Under the pieces are notes generated by a model. That model worked only from the letters and a program-made list of their open reading frames with translations. It was not told where the DNA came from and did no database searches. A stretch of DNA of 64,000 bases, from assembly GCA_015065165.1 (NCBI GenBank), contig SVQU01000009.1, positions 66 to 64,065 on the forward strand, given 5' to 3'. The position numbers and the translations under genes were made by a program. This DNA is from Oscillospiraceae bacterium. GTDB lineage: Bacteria > Bacillota > Clostridia > Oscillospirales > CAG-382. Positions 6,417-60,829 of the stretch are shown here, piece by piece; position 1 is the first letter of the stretch; each line of letters opens with the position of its first letter.

Positions 6417-7964
6417 ATGGACAATCCTATTTTAATTGGCATCATTGTGGGTGTCATCGCTGCCGCCTTAGGTTTCTTAATAGGCTATGTTTTACGCAAG
6501 AAGCTTGCCGAAAAATCCATCGGAAGCGCAGAAGCAGAGGCTAAAAGGATAATCGAGGACGCTACAAAAGCCGCAGAAACGGCGAAGAAAGAAAAGCTCG
6601 TTGAAGCAAAGGAAGAAGCTCTTAAAATTAAGAACGATACCGAACGCGAGCTTAAAGAACGCAGAAACGACCTTCAACGTATGGAGCGCAGAACCATTCA
6701 GAAGGAAGAAAATCTGGACAAAAAGTATGAAGCTCTGGAAAAGAAAGAGGAAGTACTTAACGAAAAAATTCGTGAAAACGAAGAATTGAAAACCAAAAAC
6801 GAAGAACTCGTTGCTCAGCAATCCGAGGTATTACAGAAAATTTCGGGTATGTCTGTTGAGGATGCACGCGCGATGCTTATCGAGCGTGTGGAAAGTGAAG
6901 CAAGACACGAAATGGCGATGAAGCTGCTTGAGGTTGAGCAGGAATGCAAGGACAAAGCAGAAGAATCCGCCAAGAACATAATTGCGTTGGCAATCCAGCG
7001 TTGCGCTGCCGACAGTGTTTCGGAAGCCACCGTTTCGGTTGTTGACCTTCCCAGCGACGAAATGAAGGGTAGAATTATCGGTAGAGAGGGCAGAAATATC
7101 CGCGCTATCGAAACGCTTACGGGGGTTGACCTTATTATCGACGATACGCCCGAGGCTATTGCGATTTCCACCTTCGACCCTGTTCGCCGTGAAGTTGCAA
7201 GAATGACTTTGGAAAAACTTATCTCCGACGGCAGAATTCACCCCTCCAGAATTGAGGAAACCGTTGAAAAGAGCCGTAAAGAGGTTGAAGCGGTTATTAA
7301 GAAAGAGGGCGAACAAGCCACCTATGAAACCGGTGTTCACGGTATCAATCCCGAGCTTATTAAACTTCTCGGTAGATTGAAATACCGCACAAGCTACGGT
7401 CAGAACGTGCTTAAGCACTCCATCGAGGTTGCGCATATCGCAGGTATGATTGCGGCTGAATTGGGTGTGGACGTTAACCAGGCGAAGCGCGCAGGCTTGC
7501 TGCACGATATCGGTAAGGCAATGACACACGAAATCGACGGATCTCACGTTCAGATTGGTGTTGACGTTGCAAGAAAATATAAAGAAAGCCGCGAGATTGT
7601 TCACGCTATCGAGGCTCACCACGGCGACGTAGAGCCCAACACCCTTGTTGCTATGATTGTTCAGGCGGCAGACGCAGTTTCTGCGGCACGTCCCGGCGCA
7701 AGACGTGAAAATCTCGAATCCTACATTAAACGCTTGCAGAAGCTTGAGGAAATCGCAACAAGCTTTAAGGGCGTTGAAAAATCCTTTGCAATTCAGGCGG
7801 GCAGAGAAGTTCGTATTATGGTTAAGCCCGACGAGGTGAACGACGACGAAATGGTATTTATCGCCCGTGATATTGCAAAGAAGATTGAAGAAGAGCTTGA
7901 ATATCCCGGACAGATTAAGGTTAACCTTATTCGCGAAATGCGTCAGGTAGATTACGCGAAGTAA
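6417..7964 (+). CDS. rny: ribonuclease Y
   Basis: 515-aa ORF with an N-terminal TM helix, a Lys/Glu-rich coiled coil, KH motif '[15 protein letters not shown]' and HD motif '[10 protein letters not shown]'. GGAGG RBS. Confidence 0.95.
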
Positions 7965-8153
7965 ACGCTACGCTACGCTTCGCTATCGCCCGAAAACACT
8001 TATTTTCGGGCGGATTTGCGCCTTCGTGCGCTTAACCCTAAAAATGCAAGCATTTTCAGGGAACCCATTTACTCGCGCCGAATTTGTGCATAAATGTCCA
8101 AATTCGCGAAGGCGTAAGGTATATTATCCAAGGCACGTGTCCTTGGATAATAT
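7965..8153 (-). repeat. structured interspersed repeat, copy D (family 'S')
   Basis: On the minus strand it shows the same ordered blocks as copies A-C. These are hairpin H0 (8121-8153), ATACCTTA, helix P1 (8107-8114 / 8019-8026), hairpin P2 (8079-8106), GCGCGAG box, hairpin CCCTGAAAAT..ATTTTTAGGG (8036-8061), hairpin H4 (7987-8012) and tail ..AGCGAAGCGTAGCG. The tail ends at 7965, directly against the rny stop codon (7962-7964). Confidence 0.7.
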
Positions 8154-8226
8154 GAATTTTAATTGTATTTGCTTTATTGTATTTTTTGTTGATGCTTTTA
8201 ACGGTATCAGCGATTAGATTGGAGTA

Positions 8227-9027
8227 TTGGATTTGATAAAAATACTCGCGGTGGGCGACGTATTCGGCGCGCCCGGTTGCAATTTTGTTAAAAAGCATTT
8301 GCGAAAAATAATTAATGCCGAGGGGGCGGATTTCGTCATCGTTAACGGCGAAAACGCCTGCGGAGGCAACGGTCTTGACAGGGCGGAGGCGGATTTGATT
8401 TTTTCAAGCGGCGCCGACGTTATCACGGGGGGCAACCATTCCTTCCGCAGATATGCCTTGATGGATTTTATCGAGGATGAACCGAGAATTTTAAGACCGT
8501 TGAATTTTCCCGTAGGTTCCCCCGGCGAAGGATTTTGTATCGTTCCCGTTAAAAACGGGCTTAGGGCAATGGTTATTTCGGTTTGCGGTCAGGTTTTTAT
8601 GGACCCTGCCGATTCACCCTTCACGGCGGTAAACCGCCTTTTGGAATCGCAAAAAGGCAAATATGATATTGCCATTTGTGATTTCCACGGTGAGGCAACC
8701 AGCGAAAAGCTTGCCTTTGCCCACGAGTTTGACGGCAGAATACAAATTATTTACGGCACACACACCCACGTGCAAACCGCGGATGAACGCTTAACCCCAA
8801 GGGGCGGCGGATATATCAGCGATATCGGTATGGTGGGCAGTGAAGATTCGGTTATCGGCATAAGCTATGAAACCGCGGTGCCCAGGTTCACACGGAACGT
8901 GCGTATGAAGGGTATCCCCGCCGCTGAAAACGTATCCCTTAGGGGCGCGGTGTTCACCTTGGACGAAAAAACCCTTTATTGTACAGACGTAAAGAGAATT
9001 AATTATAACGAGGAAGATTTAAAATGA
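8227..9027 (+). CDS. ymdB: YmdB-like metallophosphoesterase (2',3'-cyclic-nucleotide 2'-phosphodiesterase family)
   Basis: 266-aa ORF with a TTG start. Motifs 'ILAVGDVFG', 'VNGENACGGNG', 'TGGNH', 'DFHGEATSEK' and 'GTHTHVQTADE'. It lies downstream of rny as in Bacillus. The exact start (8227 vs 8233) is uncertain. Confidence 0.85.
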   Translation: MDLIKILAVGDVFGAPGCNFVKKHLRKIINAEGADFVIVNGENACGGNGLDRAEADLIFSSGADVITGGNHSFRRYALMDFIEDEPRILRPLNFPVGSPGEGFCIVPVKNGLRAMVISVCGQVFMDPADSPFTAVNRLLESQKGKYDIAICDFHGEATSEKLAFAHEFDGRIQIIYGTHTHVQTADERLTPRGGGYISDIGMVGSEDSVIGISYETAVPRFTRNVRMKGIPAAENVSLRGAVFTLDEKTLYCTDVKRINYNEEDLK

Positions 9028-12293: not shown

Positions 12294-12312
12294 TTTTATT
12301 GGTTTTGGTTTT

Positions 12313-12448
12313 AAAAAAGGGGGACTTTTTAAAAAAAGTCCCCCTTTTAAATTCCCCCAAAAAATTTTTATCCCCGAAAATGAAATTTTCGGCAGTAAAG
12401 GTTTTTGGGGATTTCAAAAGGGGTGTTTTTTCAAAAACACCCCTTTTG
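12313..12448. repeat. palindromic intergenic repeat cluster (family 'E') acting as bidirectional terminators
   Basis: Three A/T-flanked hairpins: GGGGGAC..GTCCCCC (12319-12344), CCCCGAAAATGAAATTTTCGG (12372-12392) and AAAAGGGGTG..CACCCCTTTT (12417-12448). The last two modules recur at 16591-16637 and, inverted, at 21761-21828. Confidence 0.65.
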
Positions 12449-15400: not shown

Positions 15401-16363
15401 GTGATAGTTGTTGTAAATAAGGTTAAGACCGCTGGGAAGCTGTTCGGGAACGCTTTCCTGAAGAACAACCTTAACGCTCTTAACAGAAAGGGTGGTACCC
15501 GAAGCGGTCAAGCCGAGGTGGCCCTTTGTAAGACCGGTCTTGGAGGTATAGCTGCTGCCTGCCATATACAAAACCTGAGTGCCGCCGATGGAATATTTAA
15601 CGTCATTGCCCGAAACCTTAACGTCGATAACGCGGTATGCATCTGCCATGGTAGAATAAGATGCTGCCGCCTTGGAAATAACGTTCCAGCCCGAGGTGGT
15701 GAATTCGGAAAATTCAATGCCGTTTGCTGCGGTGGTGTTGTTACGGATACACATCTGGTAATGGCTTGCGGTACCTGCGCGGTTGTCGGAACGGTAAACC
15801 AAAGCGAACCAACGGGTATCTTCGTTAACAGAAGTGAGCTTAACGTTTGCAGAGAAGCCGTAGTTACCGAAATCGCCCAGCCATGCAGGGAGATATGCGG
15901 TGGACTGAACAGCGTTACCCTTGATAGAAAGGGCGCTGTCTGCAATACTTGCGGTGTCGGGAAGTGTCCAACCTGCGCTTGTAAGTGCAGAGGTGCTTGC
16001 AAAATCAGCCAAGTTTGCTTCGTAAAGTACATATTCGCTGTCGGAAGCATTCTTCGCAACAACGTAAATGTTCTTGGTTTTGCTGCCGCTTGTAGCGGTA
16101 AGGGTGGTTACACCCTTTGCGGTAGGTGTAAATTCGGTGATGGTGGTGCTGCCGTTCTTCCAGGTAACGTTGGAAGTAGCAGAGGTATCACCGTCAAAGG
16201 TAACCGAATAGTTGGAAAGAGCAATCTTTGTGCCAACTGTTGCGGTTATAGCGGGGGAGTTGTTCTTGATTACTGTTGCCGCAGAAGCGGGTGTAACTGC
16301 AAAAACAGTAAGCATAGAAACCAACATTGCCAACGCTAAAATGACGCTTAATGCACGTTTCAT
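12461..16363 (-). CDS. secreted multidomain glycerophosphodiester phosphodiesterase (GDPD) with C-terminal dockerin (paralog 1)
   Basis: 1300-aa ORF with AAAGGAG RBS and signal peptide '...VFAVTPASA'. It contains Ig-like (Big_2-type) segments and a GDPD core 'GHAGNYDVAEENTMESFIAAYENGADILELDMGITSDGVPVLLHDNTLNRTT'. It also has a discoidin/F5-8-type-C-like module ('ARYFRFTI...WVDEIEL'). The C-terminus carries a duplicated dockerin segment 'GDINGNG(E/D)IDAVDYTMLKRAYFGIYA'. Confidence 0.85.
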   Translation of the reverse strand: MKRALSVILALAMLVSMLTVFAVTPASAATVIKNNSPAITATVGTKIALSNYSVTFDGDTSATSNVTWKNGSTTITEFTPTAKGVTTLTATSGSKTKNIYVVAKNASDSEYVLYEANLADFASTSALTSAGWTLPDTASIADSALSIKGNAVQSTAYLPAWLGDFGNYGFSANVKLTSVNEDTRWFALVYRSDNRAGTASHYQMCIRNNTTAANGIEFSEFTTSGWNVISKAAASYSTMADAYRVIDVKVSGNDVKYSIGGTQVLYMAGSSYTSKTGLTKGHLGLTASGTTLSVKSVKVVLQESVPEQLPSGLNLIYNNYHPTENLVTPIANVQKVTSVSAANLSNLSVAYFDLTTSIDATAALKAAVAANVVPTFYVTTNAQVDKVVAAISSAGKYDVNVISNTASVLAYLHGKNSKVRRGLVVSLSTELADGVLTSKEADAVRKKVRSAPATFAVVDSKYASAQAVNALNELAVAVWVNVASTQGTDAFRLEAITALTSGAHGIISGSASAIEEIIANDFAPNTFTRLSAGIGHAGNYDVAEENTMESFIAAYENGADILELDMGITSDGVPVLLHDNTLNRTTTYTGTKNIWEMTWAEVQQYPVVNTRTGVNTGKPIPKFEELLQFVKGKDLKLFVEYKWNAHDMIPKSIELIKKYDMLDQCDFLSFYGNCLNAVLSLAPGASTSFIYNNNSTDIKGTNATYAQSLLSLDHWISNSQYYKSTISCPRYVPITNDLMQAATDRGMTVWPWTYDTKSTNDAFFACVDGMTMINAQDLKDMVKTVSVDNLEMFVGQTYTGGALTATTYSRYSFNVSGANTVAAVVSGDAVKVENGKLVAVKEGTAKVIFGCKTNTYMGSEYVVYTQPVDVTVGGNSASVLRPLVEMAETATLNSLSEADLDSLRQLYTKAKALLASDNPSEDEVKNTASAMSKLIEAFATVSYTTTAPNYDYWDASAANMFYDDGIRLMDGKKQSITGDSSAYSAWTKTSAGVVDITVDYSTSATKDTFKGYFAHDNWGVYCPSAMDIYYSDNGSTWTKANVTLSTEKTKDATTDLPWALSTVTATSATPITARYFRFTITPGYSNGFIWVDEIELLDSNASLSYVSNVNTKIAAGDCTVFNSSFGEITNSTANIKYTAFVIAKWDSAEGAYVIKETYSSNTDGKTFNLASDEILLAAHDWESNLAGQQAVVGSAFNKMMLSNATVGQKIQFVGIDTDTWEFNVAPGFKLVTEDEPEPTLKGDINGNGEIDAVDYTMLKRAYFGIYAVDLTAGDINGNGDIDAVDYTMLKRAYFGIYAIN

Positions 16364-16590: not shown

Positions 16591-16637
16591 GTTTTTGGGG
16601 ATTTTAAAAGAGGGCTTTTTTCAAAAAGCCCCCTTTT
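16591..16637. repeat. family 'E' repeat copy / terminator downstream of the symporter gene
   Basis: GTTTTTGGGGATTTTAAAAGAGGGCTTTTTTCAAAAAGCCCCCTTTT closely matches 12401-12448. Confidence 0.6.
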
Positions 16638-21722: not shown

Positions 21723-21758
21723 AACGCTTCTCGAAAACGGGAAGCGTTGAATTTTTTA
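21723..21758 (+). terminator. rho-independent terminator after rnj
   Basis: AACGCTTC-TCGAAAACGG-GAAGCGTT followed by GAATTTTTT. Confidence 0.7.
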
Positions 21759-21760
21759 TC

Positions 21761-21828
21761 AAGGGGTATTTTCAAAAAATACCCCTTAAACCCCAAAATT
21801 TTTTACCCCCCCGAAAATTACATTTTCG
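21761..21828. repeat. family 'E' repeat copy (inverted relative to 12372-12448)
   Basis: AAGGGGTATTTTCAAAAAATACCCCTT, then AAACCCCAAAA, then CCCCCGAAAATTACATTTTCGG. These are the same modules, in reverse-complement order, as at 12.4 kb. Confidence 0.6.
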
Positions 21829-21923
21829 GAAAAAGATTTTATTACTGTAGCGAAAACTCATTTGCGCCGAAGCTAAAGGATATGCATAATAGGAAATGCA
21901 ATTCGAAAATGAAGGTTATATGC

Positions 21924-22142
21924 GGGTCGTCGAGGACGCCGACCCCTACAATTCTGTTTGAAACGTATTCGAAAAAACAAAGATACATCTAATTGAAAAG
22001 AATATGCTTCGCTCATTCGTAGCTTTTTAGTTATATTGAATGCTTACATTTTGATTCTGTAGGGAACGGCGTCCCCGACGTTCCGTTTTTTAACATAAGA
22101 TATACCAAAACAAAAAAGTAGGGGCGATTCACGAATCGCCCG
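21924..22142. repeat. REP-like palindromes (families 'TGTAGGG..GGCGTCC(T/C)CGAC' and 'GGGGCGATTCNNGAATCGCCC')
   Basis: GGGTCGTCGAGGACGCCGACCCCTACA (21924-21950), TGTAGGGAACGGCGTCCCCGACGTTCCG (22058-22085) and GTAGGGGCGATTCACGAATCGCCCG (22118-22142). Related copies occur at 44037-44060 and 49790-50039. Confidence 0.65.
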
Positions 22143-22156
22143 TTTCCACCTAAAAT

Positions 22157-26376: not shown

Positions 26377-26957
26377 AATCCGTATAACCCCCGTTTTTTG
26401 ATATATTCGTAAACCCCTTGGGGTAAACTGCTGTGGTCGGGATTCCTTCTGAAGCTCGAGGATGAACATTCAAAAGCCTCGTTATGCAGAAAATCCACGC
26501 TTGTTTGGGCAAAGCCTTTTATATTTTCTGCCAAGGGCAAAAGGTTTTCGCAATTTCGGGTGGCTATCACAAGATTAACGTTTTCCAAAATAAACTTTGC
26601 GTTTTTCCATCTTGTAAAGCCCTCTGCCAAATCGTCGCCGATAAGCAAAAACAGTTGGCTGTGTGGGTGAAGCTTTTTAATTTCTTCAACGGTGTCGCAG
26701 GTATAGCTTCTGCCACCGCGCTTAAGCTCCATATCGCCGATAGCGATTTTACTATTCCCCGAAAAGGCGATTTTTAACATTTCAATACGGTCCTCGCCCG
26801 AAACGTTTTCCAAATCTTTAAAGGGCGAAATATGGTTTGGGATAATATAAAGTAAATCAAGCCCAAGCTCTTTTATAAATTTTTCGGCAACTAAAATATG
26901 CCCCTTGTGAACGGGGTTAAAGCTTCCGCCGAAAATGCCGATTTTATTCGCCGTCAT
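26373..26957 (-). CDS. nadD: nicotinate-nucleotide adenylyltransferase
   Basis: 194-aa ORF starting 'IGIFGGSFNPVHKGHILVAE' (HxGH motif), with 'SSSSFR' near the C-terminus. Confidence 0.93.
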   Translation of the reverse strand: MTANKIGIFGGSFNPVHKGHILVAEKFIKELGLDLLYIIPNHISPFKDLENVSGEDRIEMLKIAFSGNSKIAIGDMELKRGGRSYTCDTVEEIKKLHPHSQLFLLIGDDLAEGFTRWKNAKFILENVNLVIATRNCENLLPLAENIKGFAQTSVDFLHNEAFECSSSSFRRNPDHSSLPQGVYEYIKKRGLYGL

Positions 26958-27666
26958 CCCAGTTGTGCCAAACCTCGGTAACGTCGTCGTTATCCTCCAA
27001 CGCCTCCAAAAGTCTGTTCATTTTAACAATCTGGTCCTCGTCGTCAAGACGAACGTAGTTAGAGGGGACCTTTTCGGGGTCTGCCGATTCGATGGTATAA
27101 CCCTTTGCTTCAAGGGCTTCTCTAACAGAAGAAAGCTCGCTTACGTCGGTGAAAACCTCGCCGTGGCCGTCCTCGCTGGTGAAATCCAACGCGCCGCAAT
27201 CCATACAAGCTTCCATAAACGCATCTTCATCTTCAACCCCCGAAACAACCACAACGCCCTTATCTGCGAAAAGGTAAGAAACGCAACCGCTTGTGCCAAG
27301 GTTTCCGCCGAACTTGTCGAAGTAATGGCGAACCTCACCTGCGGTTCTGTTACGGTTGTCGGTTGCGGCATCAACGATAATTGCCACACCGCCGGGGCCG
27401 TAGCCTTCGTAGGTAAGAACCTCGTATTGCACACTGTCCGCGCCCGAAGCCTTTTTTATAACTCTGTCTATGTTGTCATTAGGTACGTTAAGGCTTTTTG
27501 CCTTTGCGATAAGGTCGCGAAGACGGGTGTTAGAGGTGGGTTCGGGACCGCCGTCTCTAACAGCAATAGCAATTTCCTTGCCTATTTTGGTAAACACCTT
27601 TGCTCTTTGTGCATCGGTCTTTTCCTTTTTATGCATTATATTTTTCCATTTGGAATGTCCTGACAT
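26944..27666 (-). CDS. yebC: YebC/PmpR family DNA-binding transcriptional regulator
   Basis: 240-aa ORF starting 'MSGHSKWKNIMHKKEKTDAQRAKVFTK'. Confidence 0.93.
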   Translation of the reverse strand: MSGHSKWKNIMHKKEKTDAQRAKVFTKIGKEIAIAVRDGGPEPTSNTRLRDLIAKAKSLNVPNDNIDRVIKKASGADSVQYEVLTYEGYGPGGVAIIVDAATDNRNRTAGEVRHYFDKFGGNLGTSGCVSYLFADKGVVVVSGVEDEDAFMEACMDCGALDFTSEDGHGEVFTDVSELSSVREALEAKGYTIESADPEKVPSNYVRLDDEDQIVKMNRLLEALEDNDDVTEVWHNWDDGE

Positions 27667-27713
27667 AGTAAAACTCCTTAGTGGTTATTAAAAGCAAATT
27701 TATGTATTTTGGT

Positions 27714-27904
27714 ATTTTTCGGCGACCTGTGATTTACCCCACAAAATTTCATTTTGCGGGGGCCCCGTCGCGTCGAAAAATACACCTTAGAGTGCTGAGG
27801 ATTCGGACAACGAGCGTTAGCGAGGCGCACGAATCCTGCGCGAGCGAACGGCACTCACAAAAGACAATCAAAAACAAGTGTTTTTGATTGAGAGCGTAAG
27901 CGAC
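27714..27904 (+). repeat. structured interspersed repeat, copy A (family 'S')
   Basis: H0 arms ATTTTTCGGCGAC/GTCGCGTCGAAAAAT enclose a CCCCACAAAAT..ATTTTGCGGGG module. Then follow ACACCTTAGAG, P1 (27790-27795/27851-27856), P2 (27798-27805/27830-27837), GCGCGAGCGAACGG, H4 (27865-27890) and tail AGAGCGTAAGCGAC. The tail ends at 27904, directly against the argS stop codon (27905-27907, opposite strand). Confidence 0.7.
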
Positions 27905-29599
27905 TTAAATTTCCTCTGTTCTTCTCATACCAAGCAAATCAAGGCATCTGCCCAAAATGTTGCGGGTTGCGGAGGTAAGAGCAAGACGGAACTGTTCGGT
28001 TTCACCGTCCGAGCCGAGAATTCTGCAATTGTGATAGAACTGGTTATAAAGTGTACAAACACCAAGAGCAAAACGGGAAATATGGCTGGGCTCGTAATCA
28101 TTTGCGGCACGCTCTACAACGTTTTCAAATTCGCAAAGCTTACGGATAAGCTCGGTTTCTTCACCAACGGGGGTGTAGGATTTCCAATCGCCCTCCATAT
28201 TGCCGCGGCGCAAAACGCTGGCGGCACGTGCATAGGTATATTGAACGTAAGGACCTGTGTTGCCCTCGAAGGAAAGTGCGCTTTCCCAGGTGAAGTTGGT
28301 ATCCTTAATACGGCTGTTGGAAAGTGCACCGAAGATAACCGCGCCCAAGCCTACCGCCTCGGCGATATCCTTGTTGTCCTCTCCTGCCTTCTTTTCGTCG
28401 ATAATAGCCAATGCCTTTGCAACGGCTTCGTCGAAAACGTCGTTAAGCAAAATAATGTTGCCTGTACGGGATGCAAGCTTTTCGCCCCCGAAGCTCATTG
28501 TGCCATAGGGGATGTGAACCAAATCCTTTGCCCATTCCTTGCCCATAAGCTCGGTAACCTTAAACCATTGGGCAAAGTGCAAGGACTGACCTGCGCTGGT
28601 AACGTAAGCGCAAATATCAAAATTATAGGTGTTGTATCTATAGTTTGCCGCTGCAATATCGCGGGTGGGATAAAGGGTACTGCCGTCGCGCTTAAGGATA
28701 AGTGCGGGAGGCATATTATATTCCGAAAGGTCAACTATAGATGCGCCGTCGTCGATTTTAAGAAGCTCTTTTTCTCTAAGCTCATCTACAATAGCGGGCA
28801 TTTTGTCGGTATAAAGGCTTTCGCCGTCCCAAACGTCAAAATCAATGCCCAAGCGTTTGTAGGTCTGGGTATATTCGCGAAGGGAAATATCCTTAAACAA
28901 TTGCCATATTTCAAGATATTCCTTGTTGCCGTTTTCAAGTTCGCGGAAGGCGGCACGGGCTTGGTCGTTAAGAGAGGGGTCTTTTTCCGCCTCCTTGCCG
29001 AACATAACGTAAATACGTTCAAGCTCCTTAATGCCCTCTTTTTCAAGCTGTTCCTTGCTTGACCACTTTTTAAAAGCCACAATCTGCTTGCCGTTTTGTG
29101 TGCCCCAGTCGCCAAGATAGTTTAAAGCTACGGTTTTATAACCGCAGAATTTATAAATGTTTCTAACGGCGTTACCGATAACGGTTGTGCCCAAATGTCC
29201 CAAATGAAAACGCTTTGCGATGTTGGGGGAGGAGAAGTCCAAAACAATGGTTTTGTTTTCTCCCATTTTGGTAAGGTTGGGATATTCGTCGGAAAGCAAG
29301 CCTTCCAAATCCGAAATATATTTGTCCCCCGCAAAGAAGAAGTTAAGATAAGGGCCTGTGGGTGCAATTTTTTCTATACCGTCAACAGCGTTGAATCTTT
29401 CTGCAAGCTCGGCAGAAATCATCGCGGGATTACCCCTTAAAAGCTTTGAAAGCCTAAAGCAGGGCAATGCAAGGTCGCCAAGCTTGGAATCTGCAGGGGT
29501 TTCAAGAAAATCCGCCACCTCGTCTGCCGAAAGGGATGCGCCCTTGGAAGCAACATATTCCGCAACGGTTTCGCATATAATTGTTTTTATATCCGCCAT
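27905..29599 (-). CDS. argS: arginine--tRNA ligase
   Basis: The track ORF is 568 aa. I prefer the second ATG ('MADIKTII...', 29599) because GGAGA lies 5 nt upstream. Class I motifs 'SSPNIAKRFHLGHLGTT' (HIGH-like) and a DALR anticodon-binding C-terminus. Confidence 0.93.
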   Translation of the reverse strand: MADIKTIICETVAEYVASKGASLSADEVADFLETPADSKLGDLALPCFRLSKLLRGNPAMISAELAERFNAVDGIEKIAPTGPYLNFFFAGDKYISDLEGLLSDEYPNLTKMGENKTIVLDFSSPNIAKRFHLGHLGTTVIGNAVRNIYKFCGYKTVALNYLGDWGTQNGKQIVAFKKWSSKEQLEKEGIKELERIYVMFGKEAEKDPSLNDQARAAFRELENGNKEYLEIWQLFKDISLREYTQTYKRLGIDFDVWDGESLYTDKMPAIVDELREKELLKIDDGASIVDLSEYNMPPALILKRDGSTLYPTRDIAAANYRYNTYNFDICAYVTSAGQSLHFAQWFKVTELMGKEWAKDLVHIPYGTMSFGGEKLASRTGNIILLNDVFDEAVAKALAIIDEKKAGEDNKDIAEAVGLGAVIFGALSNSRIKDTNFTWESALSFEGNTGPYVQYTYARAASVLRRGNMEGDWKSYTPVGEETELIRKLCEFENVVERAANDYEPSHISRFALGVCTLYNQFYHNCRILGSDGETEQFRLALTSATRNILGRCLDLLGMRRTEEI

Positions 29600-29727
29600 A
29601 TTTATCTCCATGTTGAGTTATTTCTGATTATTCAAATAATATACCATATTTTCACATTAAAATCAAGAGAAAACCGCCGATTTTCCGTTGATTTTAAACC
29701 GTATTTTTCAATTAAGGGGGAGTAATA

Positions 29728-37476: not shown

Positions 37477-37532
37477 TAGGAAAATTATCATCGCTTTTTA
37501 AGGCGGACTTTTTTAAAAATCCGCCTTTTGTT

Positions 37533-53686: not shown

Positions 53687-56038
53687 ATGAAAAAATCCAT
53701 CAGATTGCTTTCGGTTTTGTTGGCTGCCGTTATGATTACCGCCGTAATACCCTTCGGCGCAATGGCAACCACCACCGCTTTGAAAAACAAAACAGTTCTT
53801 GCCTTTGGCGATAGCCTTACGGCATTGGGCAACCCCACCTACGTAGGATACCTTTCGGATTTGTTGGGTATCAACGTTATTAACGCGGGTGTCGGCGGTA
53901 ATATGACCGCCCACGGTAAAGCGCGTTTCCAAGCCGACGTTCTCGATAAGAATCCCGACGTGGTTCTTATGTGCTTCGGTATGAACGACCAAGCCTGCAG
54001 CCTTCCTTCGGGCTATTGCTGGTCCTCTCCCGAGGTTTACCGTGCGGATATGACCTATTTCATCACCGAGCTTCAAAAGACCGGTTGCGACGTAATCCTT
54101 ATCACTCCCAACCCTGTTTGTGATGAAACCGGTTATTACGTTGCTCCCGAAGACTATACCTATAACTATCCCGGTTCGTTGGATAAGTTTGTAAAGGTTA
54201 TGCGCGAGCTTGCCCTTGAATTCGATTGCACTCTCATTGATATGCACCAAGAATTTATGACGGTTAAGGCAAGTAATATTGCTACCTATAAGAGCTATTA
54301 CGCCCCCAACGACGGTATTCACCAAAGCCAGCTTGGCAGACAGTTCTGGGCAGAAAAGGTTAACGCTCATCTTAACGCTGTTTATGATAACGTAAACAAA
54401 AAGACCATAACCGTTAACTGCGTTGATAAAAACAATAACGTTATTAAAACCTATAGCTATGTTGGCGCAAACGGTGCAAACGTTGTAATTGCGCCCCCCG
54501 CTATTCCCGCCTTCTCTACCGATAGTACGGCTGTGTCGGCTAAATATGGTACAGACAGCACCGTTACCTTCACTTTCGAGGCTAAAATCACTCCTTTGTT
54601 AGAGGCTGTTGAAAATATCGACGAATCCAAATACAGCGCAACCGCACTTTCTCTCATTCGCAAGGAATATAACACCGCGAAGAGCCTTCTTGCCGCTGAA
54701 AATATCGATTTTGAAGCGTTGGAAAAATGCGCTCAGGTTCTTGAATATTACCTTTCGGTAAACGGCGACGGTACCCTTGTTATCTCCTTGGGTAAGAGCT
54801 ATACCAGACCTGAACCCAACTATTATAAATGGGACAGCGCAACCGGCGGCCCCAGCACCGAGCTTAACGAGATGTATTCCGACGACTTTATTCGTCTTAC
54901 CGACGGTAAGAAGGGTATAGTTCCTGCCAATACAAGCGCATATTCCGCATGGCAGAGCAACGCCGATATCGTTGTGGATCTTGGCGAGGAAACTGCTTCC
55001 AACGTTTACCGCGCTTATTTCGCTTCCGGAATGTGGGGCGTTGCCGCACCTGCCGATATGAAGATTGCTTATTCCAACGATAAGACCAATTGGACTTATA
55101 TCGAAAAGGCATTTGTTAAGACCGATGTTGTTTCGGGCGGCGCCGACGCGTGGAGCTCTACCGAATATTCGGTTACCGCAGATTCCGAAATCACTGCAAG
55201 ATATATCAAGTTCGAAATCACCAAAACAGGTTCTTTTGTATGGATGGACGAGGTTGAGGTTGCGGTTAAGGGCAACGTTGAAGAAAAGTTTAACCTTGCT
55301 TACAACAAAACCTATGAAAAATCGCCTTTGTTCAGACAAAGCAATATAACTTGGGATTGGGACGAAACCTTCCCCGAGGCATATCCCGACGAGGGCGGAA
55401 TAACCCTTACCGACGGCAAGACCAATTCCATTAACGACCTTGGCGACGGCGCTTGGGTTGGCTTTAACTCCAAGACACCTATTCTCGAAACCAACTATAA
55501 CTACATCCGTGTTGACCTTGGCGACGTTTACGGCTTGACACAGCTTGACCTCCACGTGGGCAGCAACGGTCTTGGTTACGGTATTACCGCGCCCAACGTT
55601 GAATTCTTCGTTTCCGAGGACGGCGAGACCTACACCTCTGTGGGAACTGCCAACGGCGCAAACGGCGGCGCATATACCGAGCTTCTTTCGGTTGAATGTG
55701 AGGTTAACGCCCGTTACGTAGAAGCTCGTATTACCAGCATAGGCTGGGCGTTCGTTTCTGAAATTTACGCTTATGGCGGAGATTTGTTTGACGATAAAGA
55801 GCCTACTCCCGACCCCGACCCCGATCCCGATCCCGATCCCGATCCCGTTGTTATGAAGGGCGATATTAACGGCAACGAGGAAATCGATGCGGTTGACTAT
55901 GCAATGCTTAAACGCGCATATTATGGTATTTACAGCGTGGATGTGAAGGTTGGCGATATTAACGGCAATGAAGAAATCGATTCTGTAGACTACTCGATGC
56001 TTAAACGCGCATATTACGGTATCTATCAAATTCAGTAA
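53687..56038 (+). CDS. secreted SGNH/GDSL hydrolase with two discoidin-like modules and dockerin
   Basis: 783-aa ORF with a signal peptide. SGNH blocks 'VLAFGDSLT' (I), 'NAGVGGN' (II), 'MCFGMNDQ' (III) and 'NDGIHQS' (V). Discoidin-like modules ('ARYIKFEITK..WMDEVEV', 'ARYVEARITS..FVSEIYAY'). (PD)n linker. Dockerin repeats 'GDINGNEEID(A/S)VDY(A/S)MLKRAYYGIY'. Confidence 0.8.
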   Translation: MKKSIRLLSVLLAAVMITAVIPFGAMATTTALKNKTVLAFGDSLTALGNPTYVGYLSDLLGINVINAGVGGNMTAHGKARFQADVLDKNPDVVLMCFGMNDQACSLPSGYCWSSPEVYRADMTYFITELQKTGCDVILITPNPVCDETGYYVAPEDYTYNYPGSLDKFVKVMRELALEFDCTLIDMHQEFMTVKASNIATYKSYYAPNDGIHQSQLGRQFWAEKVNAHLNAVYDNVNKKTITVNCVDKNNNVIKTYSYVGANGANVVIAPPAIPAFSTDSTAVSAKYGTDSTVTFTFEAKITPLLEAVENIDESKYSATALSLIRKEYNTAKSLLAAENIDFEALEKCAQVLEYYLSVNGDGTLVISLGKSYTRPEPNYYKWDSATGGPSTELNEMYSDDFIRLTDGKKGIVPANTSAYSAWQSNADIVVDLGEETASNVYRAYFASGMWGVAAPADMKIAYSNDKTNWTYIEKAFVKTDVVSGGADAWSSTEYSVTADSEITARYIKFEITKTGSFVWMDEVEVAVKGNVEEKFNLAYNKTYEKSPLFRQSNITWDWDETFPEAYPDEGGITLTDGKTNSINDLGDGAWVGFNSKTPILETNYNYIRVDLGDVYGLTQLDLHVGSNGLGYGITAPNVEFFVSEDGETYTSVGTANGANGGAYTELLSVECEVNARYVEARITSIGWAFVSEIYAYGGDLFDDKEPTPDPDPDPDPDPDPVVMKGDINGNEEIDAVDYAMLKRAYYGIYSVDVKVGDINGNEEIDSVDYSMLKRAYYGIYQIQ

Positions 56039-56043
56039 AAAAC

Positions 56044-56231
56044 ATATTTTCCAAGGACAGGCGCCTTGGAAAATATACCTATGACGTTCGCGAGCTGTAA
56101 AGGGGGACCCTGAAAATCGGAAGATTTTTAGGGCATTACAGCGAGGTGCGAACGCACGAACGTCAAAAGGAAAAACGTAGTTTTTCGTCAAATCAATCAA
56201 AATGCTCGCATTTTGATTGAGAGCGTAGCGA
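56044..56231 (+). repeat. structured interspersed repeat, copy C (family 'S')
   Basis: H0 ATATTTTCCAAGG-ACAGGCG-CCTTGGAAAATAT (56044-56076), then ATACCTATG. P1 is 56083-56090/56157-56164. GCTGTAA/TTACAGC encloses CCCTGAAAAT..ATTTTTAGGG (56108-56133). H4 is 56194-56219 and the tail AGAGCGTAGCGA ends at 56231. Confidence 0.7.
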
Positions 56232-56290
56232 TAAACGCGCATATTACGGTATCTATCAAATTCAGTAAAAAACATATTTTCCAAGGACAG
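56232..56290 (+). pseudogene. orphan duplicate of the last 11 codons + stop + 3' flank of the 53687-56038 CDS
   Basis: The 59 bp at 56232-56290 are identical, base for base, to 56002-56060 ('TAAACGCGCATATTACGGTATCTATCAAATTCAGTAAAAAACATATTTTCCAAGGACAG'). Confidence 0.9.
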
Positions 56291-59500: not shown

Positions 59501-60460
59501 AATACCAATGCATATTCCGCATGGCAGAAGACCTCCGACGGCAAGATTGAAATCATTCTCGATTGCAGCAACCCTGCCCAGAGAGATACCTTCAAGGCAT
59601 ATTTCGCCTCTAACAGCATTTGGGGTGTTAAGGCGCCTGCAAATATGGAGGTTTCCTATTCTACCGATAACAAAACCTTTACACAGTTGGGCGGCGCTAC
59701 TCTTACCAAGCGTCAAATTCCCGACGTGGGCGAATTGAGCGACAACGTTTGGAGCCGTTGGGAATACACCGTAAAAGCTCCTTCGGTTGTTACCGCAAGA
59801 TATTATAAGTTCACCATCTATTTCGAGGGCAGCTTCATTTGGATTGATGAAATCGAAGCCGCTAACGAAAGCAGCGATCTTATTTATATTAATAAGGTTA
59901 ACAACAGAATTAATGCAGGCGAAGCGGGTATTTATACCTCCTCCTTCGGCGAATTGAACAAGCAAACCGCAAACAACATTTGGACAGTGAATATCACTGC
60001 AAAATGGGATGCTTCCAAGGATGCGTACGTGGTTAGCAACGTAGCCTTCGGCGACGGCACCGACAAGCCCGTAACTATTGCTTCGGATGAAATTTATATC
60101 GCTGTTCACGAATGGGAATTGAACACTCTTGATGAAATGCCCGTTGTCGGCAGTGCTCATAACTTGAATCTTGCAAAGGTTGCACAGGTTGGCGACGTGG
60201 TTGAATTCTACGGTATCGATACCGATACTTGGGAGTTCGGCCCTGCACCCAGCATTAAGTTTGTAAGCGAATCCAACAAGGGCGACCTCAACGACAACGG
60301 CGAAATCGATGCTGTTGACTACTCCTTGCTGAAGCGTGCATACTTTGGTATCTTTGCCAGTAATAGCAGTGTTTCTGATATTAATGGCAACGGTGAAGTG
60401 GATGCGGTAGACTACTCCTTGCTTAAACGTGCATACTTCGGTATTTACAGCCTTGCATAA
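56519..60460 (+). CDS. secreted multidomain glycerophosphodiester phosphodiesterase (GDPD) with C-terminal dockerin (paralog 2)
   Basis: 1313-aa ORF with the same architecture as 12461-16363; the N-terminal ~130 aa are nearly identical by eye. Canonical GDPD core 'GHRGNPGVAAENTIESFQAAYENGGDVFEIDVECTKDGVIVILHDGTLTRTT'. Discoidin-like module ('ARYYKFTIYF..WIDEIEA'). Dockerin repeats 'GDLNDNGEIDAVDYSLLKRAYFGIF' / 'DINGNGEVDAVDYSLLKRAYFGIY'. Confidence 0.88.
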   Translation: MKRTLSFIVTLAMLLSLFTVFAVTPASAATVIGNNSPAIRANVGETITLSNYSVTFDGDTTATSNVTWKNGSSTITTFKPTAKGVTTLTATSGSKTKNIYVVAKNSSDTEYVLYEATMSNFSSVSALTSAGWTFTNSARASKGSDGALVLGVTGKWDATSAYLPSWLGDFGNYKFSANVKFSAFAESDKSRWFSLMTRTENRTCTAHYTHAAFRGNNTASNGIEFAERYATDSGSDWNVALKTPGTYTDLTDAYRDFSILSVDNTFRVDIAGKQMIYVAPSSYLSLSKKQVYKGHLGFQASGCTIAIKSVKITLEDTVPEEIIDTKLIYNSYHDADNLVNPIANIQRVSSVTAANLDKLSVAYIDLTTGVNAQTAFKTCIDNKVVPTFYATTTAHADAIIAASTALGSTDATVVSNNKTVLNRIRVHSTAYPIRTGLVVDISTQMADGTMTDYEADEIRRDVRAIPATFILIESKYATKQAVAELQEMALAVWVNVTSTPNTDAFNIEAMKAITSGANGLVSNSAAGVSSLIKTHIQARAFTRTPITIGHRGNPGVAAENTIESFQAAYENGGDVFEIDVECTKDGVIVILHDGTLTRTTTYTGSTSIRNMTWAEAKKYHVLDLNGNSTGKPIPTLKEVLDWAKGKDIKIFVEFKDNSTTCVNGTMADIVERGMTQQVDIISFNTTALKLARTAVPGISTGYLNGNDITGSTYSMALKLFEGRIEPAQREWSTVNCGSYNNQVTNLAVQVATDRGMTMWPWTYGYSNTSAAFFDCPDGITTDNMEVMKDMVKTVHAKNFVMLPGQTYGGGALTSETYGNTLTSVSANNTIVSVVAGDSVKVENGKLVAVKEGISTVVMAVKSWTYLGKEYIVYSQPVQVRVGTGDPAVLEPLVEMAKSATINSLSESDLATLREYCDKAVALINSSNPKEAEVKATAEALNNIIAKFIVEKYIAPAPNYYKWDSATGGPSTELNETYVDDGVRLVDGKKSHVAGNTNAYSAWQKTSDGKIEIILDCSNPAQRDTFKAYFASNSIWGVKAPANMEVSYSTDNKTFTQLGGATLTKRQIPDVGELSDNVWSRWEYTVKAPSVVTARYYKFTIYFEGSFIWIDEIEAANESSDLIYINKVNNRINAGEAGIYTSSFGELNKQTANNIWTVNITAKWDASKDAYVVSNVAFGDGTDKPVTIASDEIYIAVHEWELNTLDEMPVVGSAHNLNLAKVAQVGDVVEFYGIDTDTWEFGPAPSIKFVSESNKGDLNDNGEIDAVDYSLLKRAYFGIFASNSSVSDINGNGEVDAVDYSLLKRAYFGIYSLA

Positions 60461-60493
60461 TAGAAAACCGTAAAAGTATAAAATAATATAACC

Positions 60494-60719
60494 ATAAAAG
60501 CCGAGGACACGTGATCCTCCCCGCAAAATGTAATTTTGCGGGGACCCCATTACTCGGCTTTTATACCTTAGAGGTTCGCAAGTTTGGACAAGATGCAAAG
60601 CATCGCGCACAAACTTGGCGCGAGCAACGGACCCTAAAAACGCCCGCGTTTTAAAGGGGTAGTGTCCGAACCTCAAAAAACGCACGAAAATAGGTGTTTT
60701 CGTGCGAGAGCGAAGCGAC
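60494..60719 (+). repeat. structured interspersed repeat, copy B (family 'S')
   Basis: H0 arms ATAAAAGCCGAG/CTCGGCTTTTAT (60494-60564) enclose ACACGTGATCC plus a CCCCGCAAAAT..ATTTTGCGGGG module. Then follow ACCTTAGAG, P1 (60571-60578/60667-60674), P2 (60579-60586/60610-60617), GCGCGAGCAACGG, hairpin ACCCTAAAAAC..GTTTTAAAGGGG, H4 (60681-60706) and tail AGAGCGAAGCGAC ending at 60719. Confidence 0.7.
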
Positions 60720-60722
60720 AAC

Positions 60723-60829
60723 CGTGCATACTTCGGTATCTACAGCCTTGCATAAAAGAAAATCGTAAAAGCATAAAACAAAATAAGTATATAACGATAA
60801 AAGCCGAGGCGTATGTCCTCGGCTTTTAT
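60723..60829 (+). pseudogene. orphan diverged duplicate of the last 10 codons + stop + terminator of the 56519-60460 CDS
   Basis: CGTGCATACTTCGGTATCTACAGCCTTGCATAA (60723-60755) differs at 1 of 33 positions from 60428-60460. The following 3' flank and terminator arms (AAAAGCCGAGG/CCTCGGCTTTT) are also duplicated, with a few substitutions and indels. Confidence 0.8.

Follow-up and report, generated by a model that had tools for sequence, protein, structure and literature searches.

Family S is a multi-hairpin repeat with four copies in the 64-kb window (the whole stretch of DNA analyzed) and about 65 more in related MAGs, where they occupy 53 loci. In 18 of 71 copies the tag at one of its ends is placed at −1 to +3 nt relative to the stop of a convergent gene, and some 13 different housekeeping genes are represented among these 18. 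The chances are about even that it is a REP/BIME-like mosaic that enters ORF ends in one orientation and acts there as a 3′-UTR terminator or attenuator. The related carriers are uncultured Eubacteriales, Clostridia and Oscillospiraceae MAGs from ruminant guts, and within a single clade of uncultured gut Clostridia the element would be moving, or would recently have moved, both inside genomes and from one genome to another.

Anatomy and conserved structure of family S

The unit is about 190–200 nt long with hairpin stems of 9–13 bp. In the orientation of the initial annotation, which is arbitrary but is kept here, its modules run from the head (TACAATAAAATCC) through hairpin H1, a linker (ACCTATGA), the branched domain P2 and hairpin H4 to a 14-nt tag, GAGAGCG-N(N)A-GCGAY. 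The two ends (TACAATAAAATCC... and ...GAGAGCGAAGCGAY) are not inverted repeats of each other. The smallest free-standing unit is a hairpin plus tag, and mosaic or tandem forms include tag-tag (L043, L078, L085), three tandem hairpin units (L013), hairpin plus tag (L055) and a lone tag (L119). The tag pattern occurs three times in the window, where 0.01 occurrences are expected.

The three helices are conserved as structures: 97.7% of their cells are paired, changes are present on both sides in 23 of 31 pairs, and the covariation score of 0.60 (0.18 in shuffles) collapses once the partners are slid. H1 has one conserved irregular pair (G·T in 21 copies, A-T in 10); apart from it, the sporadic mismatched pairs are balanced (G·U 7, A·C 6), and an attempt to assign the strand from wobble pairs failed for this reason. 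One-sided (wobble) intermediates are almost absent from the stems, a scarcity that could reflect DNA-level palindrome correction instead of RNA selection. Because the conserved H1 G·T/A-T pair and the GNA/GNNA loops lie on the strand opposite the mRNA, terminator function at the RNA level cannot be the sole constraint on the family. The tag-bearing strand also carries the mini-hairpin motifs GCGNAGC, GCGNNAGC and GCGCGAGC. In DNA these motifs are much more stable than in RNA, a hint that the element moves via a folded single DNA strand, comparable to REP/RAYT or IS200/IS605-type movement.

At the gathering threshold, Rfam (release 15) recognizes only a tRNA-Gln in the window and no family for the element, and permissive-E-value searches with copies A and C gave matches that are all far below threshold. 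A scan of viral contigs with the tag pattern gave two chance matches, which the family HMM does not recognize. GC skew in the window is too weak to give the direction of replication.

Placement at gene ends and empty orthologous sites

Copies A and D occupy the argS-yebC and rny-ymdB spacers, respectively, where the features are as follows.

26944..27666, minus strand: yebC, co-directional with argS and 3′ of copy A
27705..27711, plus strand: copy A head remnant, GTATTTT, which differs from the canonical TACAATAAAATCC
27712..27783, plus strand: copy A hairpin H1, with arms 27712-27726 and 27767-27783
27737-27761: small hairpin CCCCACAAAAT..ATTTTGCGGGG, nested within the loop of copy A H1
27784-27789: conserved ACCTTA, directly 3′ of copy A H1
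27790..27856, plus strand: copy A central domain P2, with closing stem GAGTGC/GCACTC and inner stem GGATTCG/CGAATCC
27865..27890, plus strand: copy A hairpin H4, helix 3 of the family, terminator-like on the argS strand
27890..27904, plus strand: copy A tag (T), GAGAGCGTAAGCGAC, with mini-hairpin motif GCGTAAGC inside; touches the argS stop codon
27905..29611, minus strand: argS, recognized by family domains on the translation; stop codon 27905-27907
6417..7964, plus strand: rny (RNase Y); stop codon 7962-7964
7965..7987, minus strand: copy D tag, GATAGCGAAGCGTAGCGTAGCGT in the orientation used here, with the AGCGT unit reiterated; touches the rny stop codon
7988..8011, minus strand: copy D hairpin H4 (GCCCGAAAA..TTTTCGGGC)
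8019..8114, minus strand: copy D domain P2, with nested hairpin CCCTGAAAATGC..GCATTTTTAGGG
8121..8153, minus strand: copy D hairpin H1 (the last hairpin; 8120-8154 in the terminator scan), tail AATTTTAATT
8154..8204, minus strand: copy D head (ATTGTAT on the plus strand), a second ATTGTAT remnant and filler
8227..9027, plus strand: ymdB, co-directional with rny and 3′ of copy D

The zero spacing first noticed at both genes is exact. In copy A the last nucleotide of the tag (GAGAGCGTAAGCGAC) is 27904, next to the argS stop codon at 27905-27907; in copy D the reverse-complemented tag (ACGCTACGCTACGCTTCGCTATC) begins at 7965, right behind the rny stop codon at 7962-7964. The description of these genes as convergent holds only under the arbitrary orientation given to the element, which in fact sits between co-directional genes (argS to yebC, rny to ymdB). 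The ArgS assignment is based on tRNA-synt_1d, DALR and N-terminal domains, with the DALR match ending at residue 567 of 568. Exact-protein look-ups gave no match for ArgS and YmdB, and for YebC a match to the same strain only, with an identical spacer.

The initial annotation had proposed a comparison of orthologous argS-yebC and rny-ymdB spacers, and this shows clear presence and absence of the element; empty orthologous sites are L139, L140, L124 and L063. In L139 the rny-ymdB spacer is only 26 nt long (TAA and then TATAGCG...), in a MAG that has family copies at other loci (L017, L027, L062, L066). At the window site the TAA is followed by exactly 240 nt of inserted DNA (7965-8204) and then by TATCAGCG..., with no target duplication. 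Since the whole 22-nt spacer of the empty site survives beyond the insert, the window insertion point is at offset 0. In the window, L135, L036 and L136/137 the rny-ymdB spacer holds copies of differing sub-types, each of them starting exactly behind the stop codon; in L136/137 the tag is absent and the hairpin itself is at the stop codon. The argS-yebC spacer exists in graded states: it is 14 nt long and empty in L124, has just the tag in L119, has H4 and the tag in L055 and, at the other end of the series, houses the full copy. Left of about 27704 the copy A flank aligns with the L119 spacer, which has no hairpins. Precise insertion at stop codons or terminators, one of two possibilities raised at the outset, is thus supported by the empty and filled rny-ymdB sites, by the argS-yebC series and by the terminator junctions described below. 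TA-duplicating (IS630/mariner-type) insertion was considered and rejected, since TGA stops are used too and TA duplication is absent at the empty/filled pair; copies A and D have no flanking repeat, the best flank-to-flank match being 8–10 nt.

Sequence is shared between loci in a way that does not follow the genes. The closest relative of copy A P2, which includes the conserved GCGCGAGC at 27838-27845, is L013 at another gene (90% over 105 nt), and a 52-nt stretch of copy D (H1 3′ arm, ACCTTA linker and P2 start) has 100% identity to L027, a copy beside a different gene of another genome. Copies at orthologous sites differ more than these long matches between different genes of different genomes and are not mutually closest relatives, and even unrelated genes have almost the same 14-nt tag and linkers beside them. 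On both strands copy A has a significantly better fold than its shuffles (z = −4.1 and −5.1).

Across the 71 tags the offsets from the stop codon of a convergent gene are −1 (n = 7), 0 (n = 6), +1 (n = 3) and +3 (n = 2), and in every −1 case the first purine of the element restores TAA or TAG. When the 28 tags with a convergent ORF end within 60 nt are considered, 18 lie at −1 to +3 (binomial p ∼2e-11 against uniform placement); 7–300 nt are left between tag and stop codon in 25 of 43 copies. The stop-abutted genes, named from their C-terminal translations as read and not by family search, include argS, rny, pnp, efp, tpiA, smc, nagB, rpiB and a type III glnA. Stop-codon adjacency goes with the tag: of the GGGGTCCCC-type hairpins that lack a tag, 4 of 32 touch a stop codon, and of those with a tag after them, 5 of 8. 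General spacer compaction does not explain the abutment, because the head side retains 50–75 nt of spacer before the next gene. A second junction class is found where the T-run of an already present terminator ends, 7–8 nt past the stem (L070, L094, L058), and in L087 the tag abuts the ribosome-binding site of a co-directional gene. No shared motif was found before the tag end at the junctions besides the stop codon or T-run; TACAAT is conserved at the head, and in the empty site L139 it does not adjoin the stop codon. In arrays L049, L013, L085 and L135 extra tag units separate an older copy from the stop codon, and in every case the closest unit touches the stop.

The other two window copies lie 3′ of dockerin genes.

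56044..56232, plus strand: copy B, with H1 56044-56076, H4 56195-56218 and tag 56219-56232
56002..56060, plus strand: copy B direct repeat 1, 59 nt, identical to 56232-56290
56232..56290, plus strand: copy B direct repeat 2, which continues into terminator AAGGACAGAGG..CCTCTGTCCTT and a T-run
60494..60719, plus strand: copy C, 3′ of a second dockerin gene, with tag 60706-60719 and head TATAAC 60487-60492
60425..60506, plus strand: copy C direct repeat 1, about 90% identical to 60720-60809
60720..60809, plus strand: copy C direct repeat 2, followed by a solo H1-type terminator hairpin

Copies B and C do not touch stop codons, have the opposite orientation relative to the gene from that of A and D (copy B being oriented like its dockerin gene), and are flanked by long direct repeats. 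Direct repeat 1 of copy B spans the final 11 codons of the dockerin gene with its stop codon, and the H1 left arm, and the dockerin gene end at 60797-60829 is a solo H1-type hairpin. This long-direct-repeat architecture, also present in L028 and L104, is outside the reach of a model of entry at stop codons. A diversity-generating retroelement was considered for the repeats of B and C and rejected, as the repeat differences are not adenine-specific and no reverse transcriptase is nearby.

Transcription signals, proposed mechanism and alternatives

Terminator features point in one direction. On the gene's strand the 8 nt after H4 contain a mean of 4.8 T (at least 5 T in 21 of 33 copies) and the 10 nt after H1 a mean of 5.0 T (at least 5 T in 21 of 33; 83% A+T), whereas on the opposite strand the 8 nt after each hairpin contain means of 0.4 and 2.0 T. 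The original proposal that H4 is the terminator of the abutted gene fits copy A, where TCTTTTGTGA (27855-27864) directly follows H4 on the minus (argS) strand and a terminator scan scores it as terminator-like. In copy D, H4 followed by GGATTTGCG on the rny strand is unscored, and it is H1, followed by GAATTTTAATTGTAT on the plus (rny) strand, that is terminator-like. Action of copy A as an internal attenuator of argS-yebC is plausible, since the gene order is conserved, the spacers of relatives are as short as 14 nt and a terminator-like hairpin has been added. The further suggestion that the element, transcribed in its own orientation, would make RNA antisense to argS or rny finds no support in the sequence: a promoter scan found no sigma-70-like promoter in the copy A or copy D region, and T-runs do not follow the hairpins in that direction. 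A −10-like hexamer, TACAAT/TATAAT, is conserved 7–9 nt upstream of H1, but there is no conserved −35, as the sequence upstream of TACAAT is variable flank.

The favored mechanism is entry in a single orientation where a functional unit ends on its 3′ side, right after a stop codon or an existing terminator's T-run, so that the upstream gene's transcript would read stop codon, 14-nt pyrimidine-rich tag, H4 and U-run, P2, H1 and U-run. On that strand the element would most likely be a 3′-UTR module that terminates or attenuates transcription and shields the mRNA 3′ end, and its first hairpin would be kept 14–15 nt from the stop codon, about the distance that just clears a terminating ribosome. 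Judged from these sequence features, terminator or attenuator function is a predicted one. Movement is presumably through a dedicated enzyme. A search of the 226 ORFs up to 400 nt away from copies (in 8-kb loci around them) turned up no transposase, RAYT or reverse transcriptase, and these ORFs cluster solely into orthologous housekeeping genes and dockerin proteins, with no recurrent non-housekeeping ORF. The window ORFs of about 400 aa, considered as possible partner enzymes, are all housekeeping enzymes, and no TnpB- or IscB-like ORF was found near copies.

Precise junctions might also arise by erosion after insertion, if the tag end were a recurrent nick or break site at which repeated resection and repair delete non-essential DNA until they meet an essential nucleotide, in a stop codon, terminator T-run or ribosome-binding site. 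Such erosion would suit the three kinds of boundary that the tag abuts, the wobble of the offsets from −1 to +3 with the stop restored by the element's first purine in every −1 case, the hairpin left in contact with the stop codon in tagless L136/137, and four dockerin loci in which the tag is joined to 5′-truncated gene fragments at short matches to the tag end (CGAC, AACG). It is nevertheless unlikely, as the empty-site spacer of 22 nt is intact on the far side of the window insert, entry at the stop is a simpler explanation of arrays whose stop-nearest tag unit always abuts, and 25 of 43 copies have 7–300 nt left between tag and stop. That the copies are ordinary, vertically inherited, lineage-specific 3′ UTRs or terminators, non-mobile and merely resembling a repeat family, has a close to negligible chance: argS, rny, efp, smc and a DUF1015 gene do carry the element at the stop in several species, with terminator-like hairpins on the gene's strand, but the empty sites, the near-identical tags and linkers at unrelated genes, the 105-nt and 52-nt matches across genes and genomes (with orthologous-site copies more different) and the three tags in the window against 0.01 expected all speak against it. 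Assembly artefacts aside, the cross-locus identity and the empty and filled sites already contradict this reading.

Two alternatives involve RNA. A small-RNA gene could start from the head TACAAT and its transcript could run past the tag into the neighbor's 3′ end as an antisense or guide RNA, much as a transposon-end guide RNA has the flank for its guide; H4 and the tag form no terminator in that direction, so that the transcript would enter the flank, and the conserved G·U pair and GNRA-like loops (GCGA, GUAA) lie on that strand with the −10-like hexamer. This is nonetheless very improbable. The −35 box and extended −10 are absent, the flank upstream of TACAAT is variable, the promoter scan was empty in both regions, and TACAAT can be explained just as well by the U-rich tail GGAUUUUUAUUGUAU behind H1 on the gene's strand, of which it is the reverse complement. 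None of the loops in the tag (GTTA, GTCA, GAA) is of the GNRA type, and they fit the DNA mini-hairpin class; there is neither an Rfam match nor a TnpB-/IscB-like ORF nearby. The other possibility is spread through RNA, in which element RNA with the tag as its 5′ end would be joined to transcript 3′ ends by reverse-transcriptase template switching or ligation and then recombined into the chromosome, the acceptors being mRNAs cut in the ribosomal A site at a stop codon or transcripts released at a terminator U-run. Both junction classes are such RNA 3′-end sites (±1 nt of the stop; 7–8 nt after a terminator stem), with the −1 class corresponding to cleavage behind the second base; the element begins with a purine, its other boundary is the end of the U-rich tail after H1, a natural transcript end, and in the dockerin loci the tag is joined to 5′-truncated gene 3′ ends with one side homologous. 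Yet no reverse transcriptase was seen near any copy, poly-A and other retro-element hallmarks are absent, several unobserved steps are needed and the mini-hairpin motifs are equally suited to a DNA transposition route, which leaves it only a very faint chance, if anything fainter than that of a small-RNA gene.

Related to this is the speculative idea, a long shot, that the hairpin plus tag unit is delivered where translation or transcription of the upstream gene ends, with machinery and not DNA sequence defining the site. The landing sites would then be the ribosomal A site at a stop codon or the release point past a terminator U-run, and a possible route would be the joining of element RNA to transcript 3′ ends followed by copying into DNA. 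If that were true, this would be a mobile element that reads gene boundaries; more generally, if stop-codon entry is real targeting, a small bacterial repeat has a gene boundary instead of a sequence motif as its landing site, which raises the question of the recognizer. On a conservative reading, family S reshapes the 3′ ends of core genes and the junctions inside their operons (argS-yebC, rny-ymdB, pnp, efp, tpiA) throughout a clade of uncultured rumen and hindgut Clostridia, where it probably sets termination, read-through and mRNA stability. The filled and empty sites are a clean set for use in experiments.

Comparison with known systems

Intrinsic (Rho-independent) terminators share with H4 and H1 of family S their G+C-containing stems and the U-rich runs on the gene's strand, but they lack a conserved 14-nt tag, a conserved branched linking domain and long identities between unrelated genes across genomes. 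Classical MITEs have a TIR and a TSD; family S has no TIR, its ends being unrelated, and no duplication is seen at copies A and D. Integron attC sites have a fold more conserved than their sequence, have their start at, or overlapping, the stop codon of the ORF before them, and are recognized as folded single-stranded DNA with extra-helical bases. They belong to cassette arrays beside an integrase gene (intI), whereas family S lies beside core housekeeping genes (argS, rny, pnp, efp); the RYYYAAC/GTTRRRY cores are absent from the common tag, with GTTRRRY in rare tag variants only (GTTAGGC, L005), and length and domain layout are also unlike those of family S. Single-strand initiation signals and origins (G4, St-1, ssiA) have GCGNAGC/GCGNNAGC mini-hairpins beside larger hairpins, as do the tag and P2 of family S. 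This motif class, and its occurrence as DNA next to larger hairpins at phage and plasmid priming sites, has been described (PMC13037366). Family S differs in being chromosomal, multi-copy, bound to gene ends and antisense to the neighboring gene, and a priming role is unsupported.

Non-autonomous elements derived from IS200/IS605 (palindrome-associated transposable elements) are in the same size class as family S and share with it differing sub-terminal hairpins (H1, H4), a lack of terminal inverted repeats and a lack of target duplication (copies A and D). The irregularity of H1 (a G·T pair and a bulged A) suggests, by analogy with IS200/IS605, recognition by a protein of folded single-stranded DNA. 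These elements insert 3′ of a fixed target of 4–5 nt that adjoins their left end. At the stop-codon end of family S no such conserved motif was found; TACAAT at the other end might be an IS200/IS605-like target motif, but the empty sites have no TACAAT beside the stop codon. A TnpA/TnpB partner is unseen near family S copies, and there is no Rfam match to transposon-end RNA families.

The REP/BIME elements of Proteobacteria (REPINs, moved by RAYTs, IS200-like Y1 tyrosine transposases whose genes the repeats flank) are likewise short imperfect palindromes with an unpaired conserved tag at one end, and are likewise extragenic and multi-copy, with mosaics and tandem arrays, in 3′ UTRs and between operon genes. 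In the summary that PMC12306157 gives of Liang et al. 2015, about half of Escherichia coli REPs are no more than 15 nt away from a stop codon and affect translation at that place, and in the passages of PMC12306157 and PMC3733652 that concern them, E. coli REPs near stops influence translation, mRNA stability and termination. REP super-families are defined by an unpaired GTAG or CGTC tetranucleotide at one end (PMC3733652), and the survey of REPs in the same paper makes no mention of Firmicutes or Clostridia. Family S differs in having a 14-nt tag (GAGAGCGNAGCGAY) with its own mini-hairpin and not GTAG or CGTC, a fixed array of about 190 nt of three different structured domains in place of pairs of inverted REPs, a Clostridia clade, from which REPs are not known to have been reported, as host, no RAYT gene among the 226 ORFs flanking copies, and a much sharper placement at stop codons (−1 to +1 nt). 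Family S would extend REP/BIME-type biology to Clostridia, with a new tag built on a DNA mini-hairpin.

Structure and distribution of family S

Family S is a multi-hairpin repeat of ~190-200 nt, present in the window as copies A, B, C and D, and its modules are listed here in the orientation used by the initial annotation.

Modules of family S, with coordinates of copies B and C and of hairpins nested in the four copies
Head: consensus (A)TACAATAAAATCC
H1: stem of 13 bp, apex GACA.G.GC invariant
Linker after H1: ACCTATGA
P2: closing stem of 8 bp, variable inner stems, GCGCGAGC invariant
Linker between P2 and H4: A-rich
H4: stem of 9 bp around GAAAAC...GTTTTC
Tag (14 nt): GAGAGCG-N(N)A-GCGAY
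56044-56232: copy B
60494-60719: copy C
56120-56150, 60634-60663, 8036-8066, 27737-27761, 60519-60545: nested small hairpins

A scan for the H4-tag pattern in one genome per species gave at least 118 loci, about half of them true copies; nearly all of the true copies among the matches listed belong to MAGs of uncultured Eubacteriales, Clostridia or Oscillospiraceae recovered from yak, sheep and buffalo guts. An HMM built from 21 copies recognized at least about 65 good copies among the matches listed. Conservation is of structure rather than sequence: 97.7% of 1022 helix cells are paired, 23 of 31 pairs display two-sided changes, and the covariation score is 0.60, compared with 0.18 in shuffles and no more than 0.20 when partners are slid. 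One-sided stem changes are almost absent, the exception being one conserved H1 pair (G.T in 21 copies, A-T in 10). Copy A folds better than its shuffles on both strands, and Rfam (the window at gathering threshold; copies A and C permissively) contains nothing like family S. The nested hairpins are of the GGGGTCCCC/CCCTGAAAA...TTTTAGGG type. Copies B, C and D carry one in P2, and A and C have one in the H1 loop; other genomes (loci L013 and L063 of related MAGs) contain tandem arrays of them. Their behavior is that of a separate small repeat able to replace H4.

Stop-codon junctions and orthologous spacers

The initial annotation placed copies A and D against the stop codons of argS and rny with zero spacing, and this is exact. 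The argS ORF (27905..29611, minus strand; DALR domain match to residue 567 of 568) has its reverse-complemented stop codon at 27905-27907, and the copy A tag GAGAGCGTAAGCGAC ends one base before it at 27904. The RNase Y ORF (rny, 6417..7964) ends with the usual ...YAK, and the reverse-complemented tag of copy D starts at 7965. The genes were called convergent, which is correct only with respect to the orientation in which the element was first read, since copy A lies between co-directional argS and yebC (minus strand) and copy D between co-directional rny and ymdB (plus strand).

Among the matches listed, 71 tags have sufficient flank, and for 43 of them the first feature is the end of a convergent long ORF, at offsets of -1 (7 tags), 0 (6), +1 (3) and +3 (2), the remainder being scattered from 7 to 319 nt. 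An ORF end lies within 60 nt of 28 tags, 18 of which are at -1 to +3 (p about 2e-11 against uniform placement); these 18 include L134, a contig of the same strain as the window, and without it, and with orthologues collapsed, about 13 different genes are represented. They include argS, rny, pnp, efp, tpiA, smc, nagB, rpiB and type III glnA (names across relatives are putative, having been read from C-terminal translations). In all -1 cases the element's first purine completes the TAA or TAG. In a second class of junction (L070, L094, L058) the tag follows an already existing terminator, 7-8 nt beyond its stem and where the T-run ends. Stop-codon association follows the tag: GGGGTCCCC-type hairpins abut the stop codon in 4 of 32 cases without a tag, and where a tag follows such a hairpin the tag does so in 5 of 8. 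Many "non-abutting" copies have an intervening hairpin/tag unit that abuts the stop codon instead (L049, L013, L085, L064). No target-marking sequence motif was found at the tag junctions of family S copies. At L063:687-740, in an orthologous site that is otherwise empty, a tag-like GGAGCGAAGCGAAT in the opposite orientation directly precedes the downstream gene's ATG, and the GGAG within it is a candidate ribosome-binding site.

Orthologous spacers in the window and in related MAGs
argS-yebC, L124: 14 nt, without element
argS-yebC, L131: 62 nt, without element
argS-yebC, L119: 57 nt, tag-like GAGAGCGACAGCTCT only, abutting TAA
argS-yebC, L055: 159 nt, H4 and tag abutting TAA, plus unrelated hairpins
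argS-yebC, window and L134: 238 nt, full copy
rny-ymdB, L139: 26 nt, empty, TAA then TATAGCGTGTTAGAACGGAG...
rny-ymdB, window: 262 nt, TAA, 240 nt (7965-8204), then TATCAGCGATTAGATTGGAG...
rny-ymdB, L135: 252 nt, copy of D type, variant tag abutting TAG, older tag unit farther out
rny-ymdB, L036: about 304 nt, different sub-type, abutting TAA
rny-ymdB, L136/137: 198 nt, tagless copy, H4 beginning 1-2 nt past TAA
rny-ymdB, L141: 355 nt, another hairpin 2 nt past TGA
rny-ymdB, L140: 82 nt, plain terminator

The element is thus present or absent at both sites among relatives, the spacers of L124 and L139 being without it, and the precise entry at stop codons that had been proposed is supported at rny-ymdB, where the window is filled exactly after the TAA relative to L139, with no target duplication. 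The L139 MAG (JAZRTL01) carries family S at four other loci, and in L119 (ArgS 91% identical) the rest of the spacer aligns with the window's flank. Reiterated ATTGTAT(TT), the element head as read on the gene's strand (that of the upstream gene, opposite to the first reading of the element), lies distal to the current rny-ymdB copy at 8163-8186 and at L136:1150-1180; these motifs may have been left behind by earlier copies displaced from the stop codon.

Copies at orthologous sites are not mutual nearest relatives at rny (D and L036), efp (L018/L030), smc (L034/L074) or a DUF1015 gene (L012/L102). P2 of copy A matches a copy at a different gene and in a different genome with 90% identity over 105 nt, and 52 nt of copy D, from the 3' arm of H1 into the start of P2, are 100% identical to a copy likewise at another gene and in another genome. 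This pattern excludes simple vertical inheritance and leaves two readings, recurrent entry at given sites or sequence exchange among copies. General spacer compaction is not the cause of stop-codon contact, since the head side retains 50-75 nt up to the next gene. Trimming from the tag end after insertion is a serious rival to precise entry, and an RNA-end-joining route has a low probability. No partner enzyme was found among the window ORFs of about 400 aa or among 226 ORFs within 400 nt of copies.

The tag variants GCGAAGC, GCGTAGC, GCGTAAGC, GCGTTAGC, GCC-GTAA-GGC and GCGC-GTCA-GCGC fit the mini-hairpin DNA class GCGNAGC/GCGNNAGC, as does the invariant GCGCGAGC of P2. By the account of the review defining the class (PMC13037366), such motifs have a much higher stability in DNA than in RNA form and are present at single-strand DNA priming sites. 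Here they lie, with the conserved H1 G.T pair, on the strand antisense to the neighboring gene, and may be a pointer to a single-stranded-DNA step, as a lead rather than proof.

Dockerin loci and other repeats

Copies B and C, and those at L028 and L104, lie after dockerin genes, with the relative orientation of gene and element opposite to that at argS and rny. In each of them the tag is joined to a duplicate of the dockerin 3' end, which is truncated on its 5' side and has its own stop codon and terminator.

Repeats at dockerin loci and elsewhere in the window
56002-56060 / 56232-56290: direct repeats at copy B, 59 nt, exact
60425-60506 / 60720-60809: direct repeats at copy C, about 90% identity
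L028:6400-6700 and L104:330-680: direct repeats at dockerin loci of relatives
12461-16363 (-) and 56519-60460 (+): very large dockerin-bearing paralogues, 1300 and 1313 aa
46961-56038: several further dockerin genes
21921-21952 with 50006-50037, and 22111-22145 with 49827-49861: second repeat family
12312-12346, 12412-12446, 16602-16636, 21753-21787, 37495-37529: A/T-flanked palindromes of type AAAAGGGGGACTTTTTAAAAAAAGTCCCCCTTTT
63127-63407: 15-nt tandem array

Each dockerin-locus repeat contains the gene's final 11-25 codons with the stop codon, as well as the 3' UTR and H1's left arm; the second repeat is an untranslated remnant that has a terminator of its own. At three of the four loci the tag is joined at the same dockerin codon (K/R-A). 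In copy B the H1 right arm is complementary to sequence of the duplicated flank, an indication of template switching or recombination at hairpins, not simple cut-and-paste. The two large paralogues are inverted, about 40 kb apart and 70-87% identical in long stretches.

The second repeat family, unrelated to S, is an inverted pair about 28 kb apart that contains hairpins GGGCGATTCACGAATCGCCC and CGGGTCGTCGAGGACGCCGACCC and adjoins family S heads in L013, L043, L056 and L106. The AAAAGGGGGACTTTTTAAAAAAAGTCCCCCTTTT-type palindromes look like bidirectional terminators, and many of the related-MAG loci examined contain similar copies (CGAGAGAGGGGCTTTTTGCAAAAAGCCCCTCTCTCG). The tandem array, of at least about 13 units, lies within a coding region and probably encodes a Ser/Glu/Pro-rich linker in a secreted protein.

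Predicted function and relation to known elements

T-rich runs follow both hairpins, H4 and H1, when these are read on the gene's strand: the 8 nt after H4 have a mean of 4.8 T (at least 5 T in 21 of 33 copies). For the other strand the corresponding 8-nt means are 0.4 (H4) and 2.0 (H1). Family S is therefore most likely a one-directional double terminator or attenuator of the upstream gene. The suggestion that H4 terminates the upstream gene holds for copy A, where H4 with TCTTTTGTGA is terminator-like in the scan, but in copy D it is H1, the last hairpin, that scores. The first hairpin lies 14-15 nt from the stop codon. According to the account of Liang et al. 2015 in PMC12306157, E. coli REPs less than 16 nt from a stop codon stall terminating ribosomes; by analogy, the tag length would put H4 at about this limit. 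The idea that the element's own orientation yields antisense RNA finds no support in the sequence, since scans of both strands of the copy A and D regions detected no sigma-70-like promoter and the sequence 5' of TACAAT is not conserved.

The closest known kind is the REP/BIME class, with which family S has in common a palindrome with an unpaired tag, mosaics, a 3' UTR location and frequent closeness to stop codons, but it lacks the GTAG/CGTC tag that defines that class (PMC3733652). Like IS200/IS605-derived elements it has no inverted ends, no duplication and sub-terminal hairpins, but unlike them it has no demonstrable fixed target. Family S is noteworthy for its association with stop codons at the nucleotide level in many genes and species.
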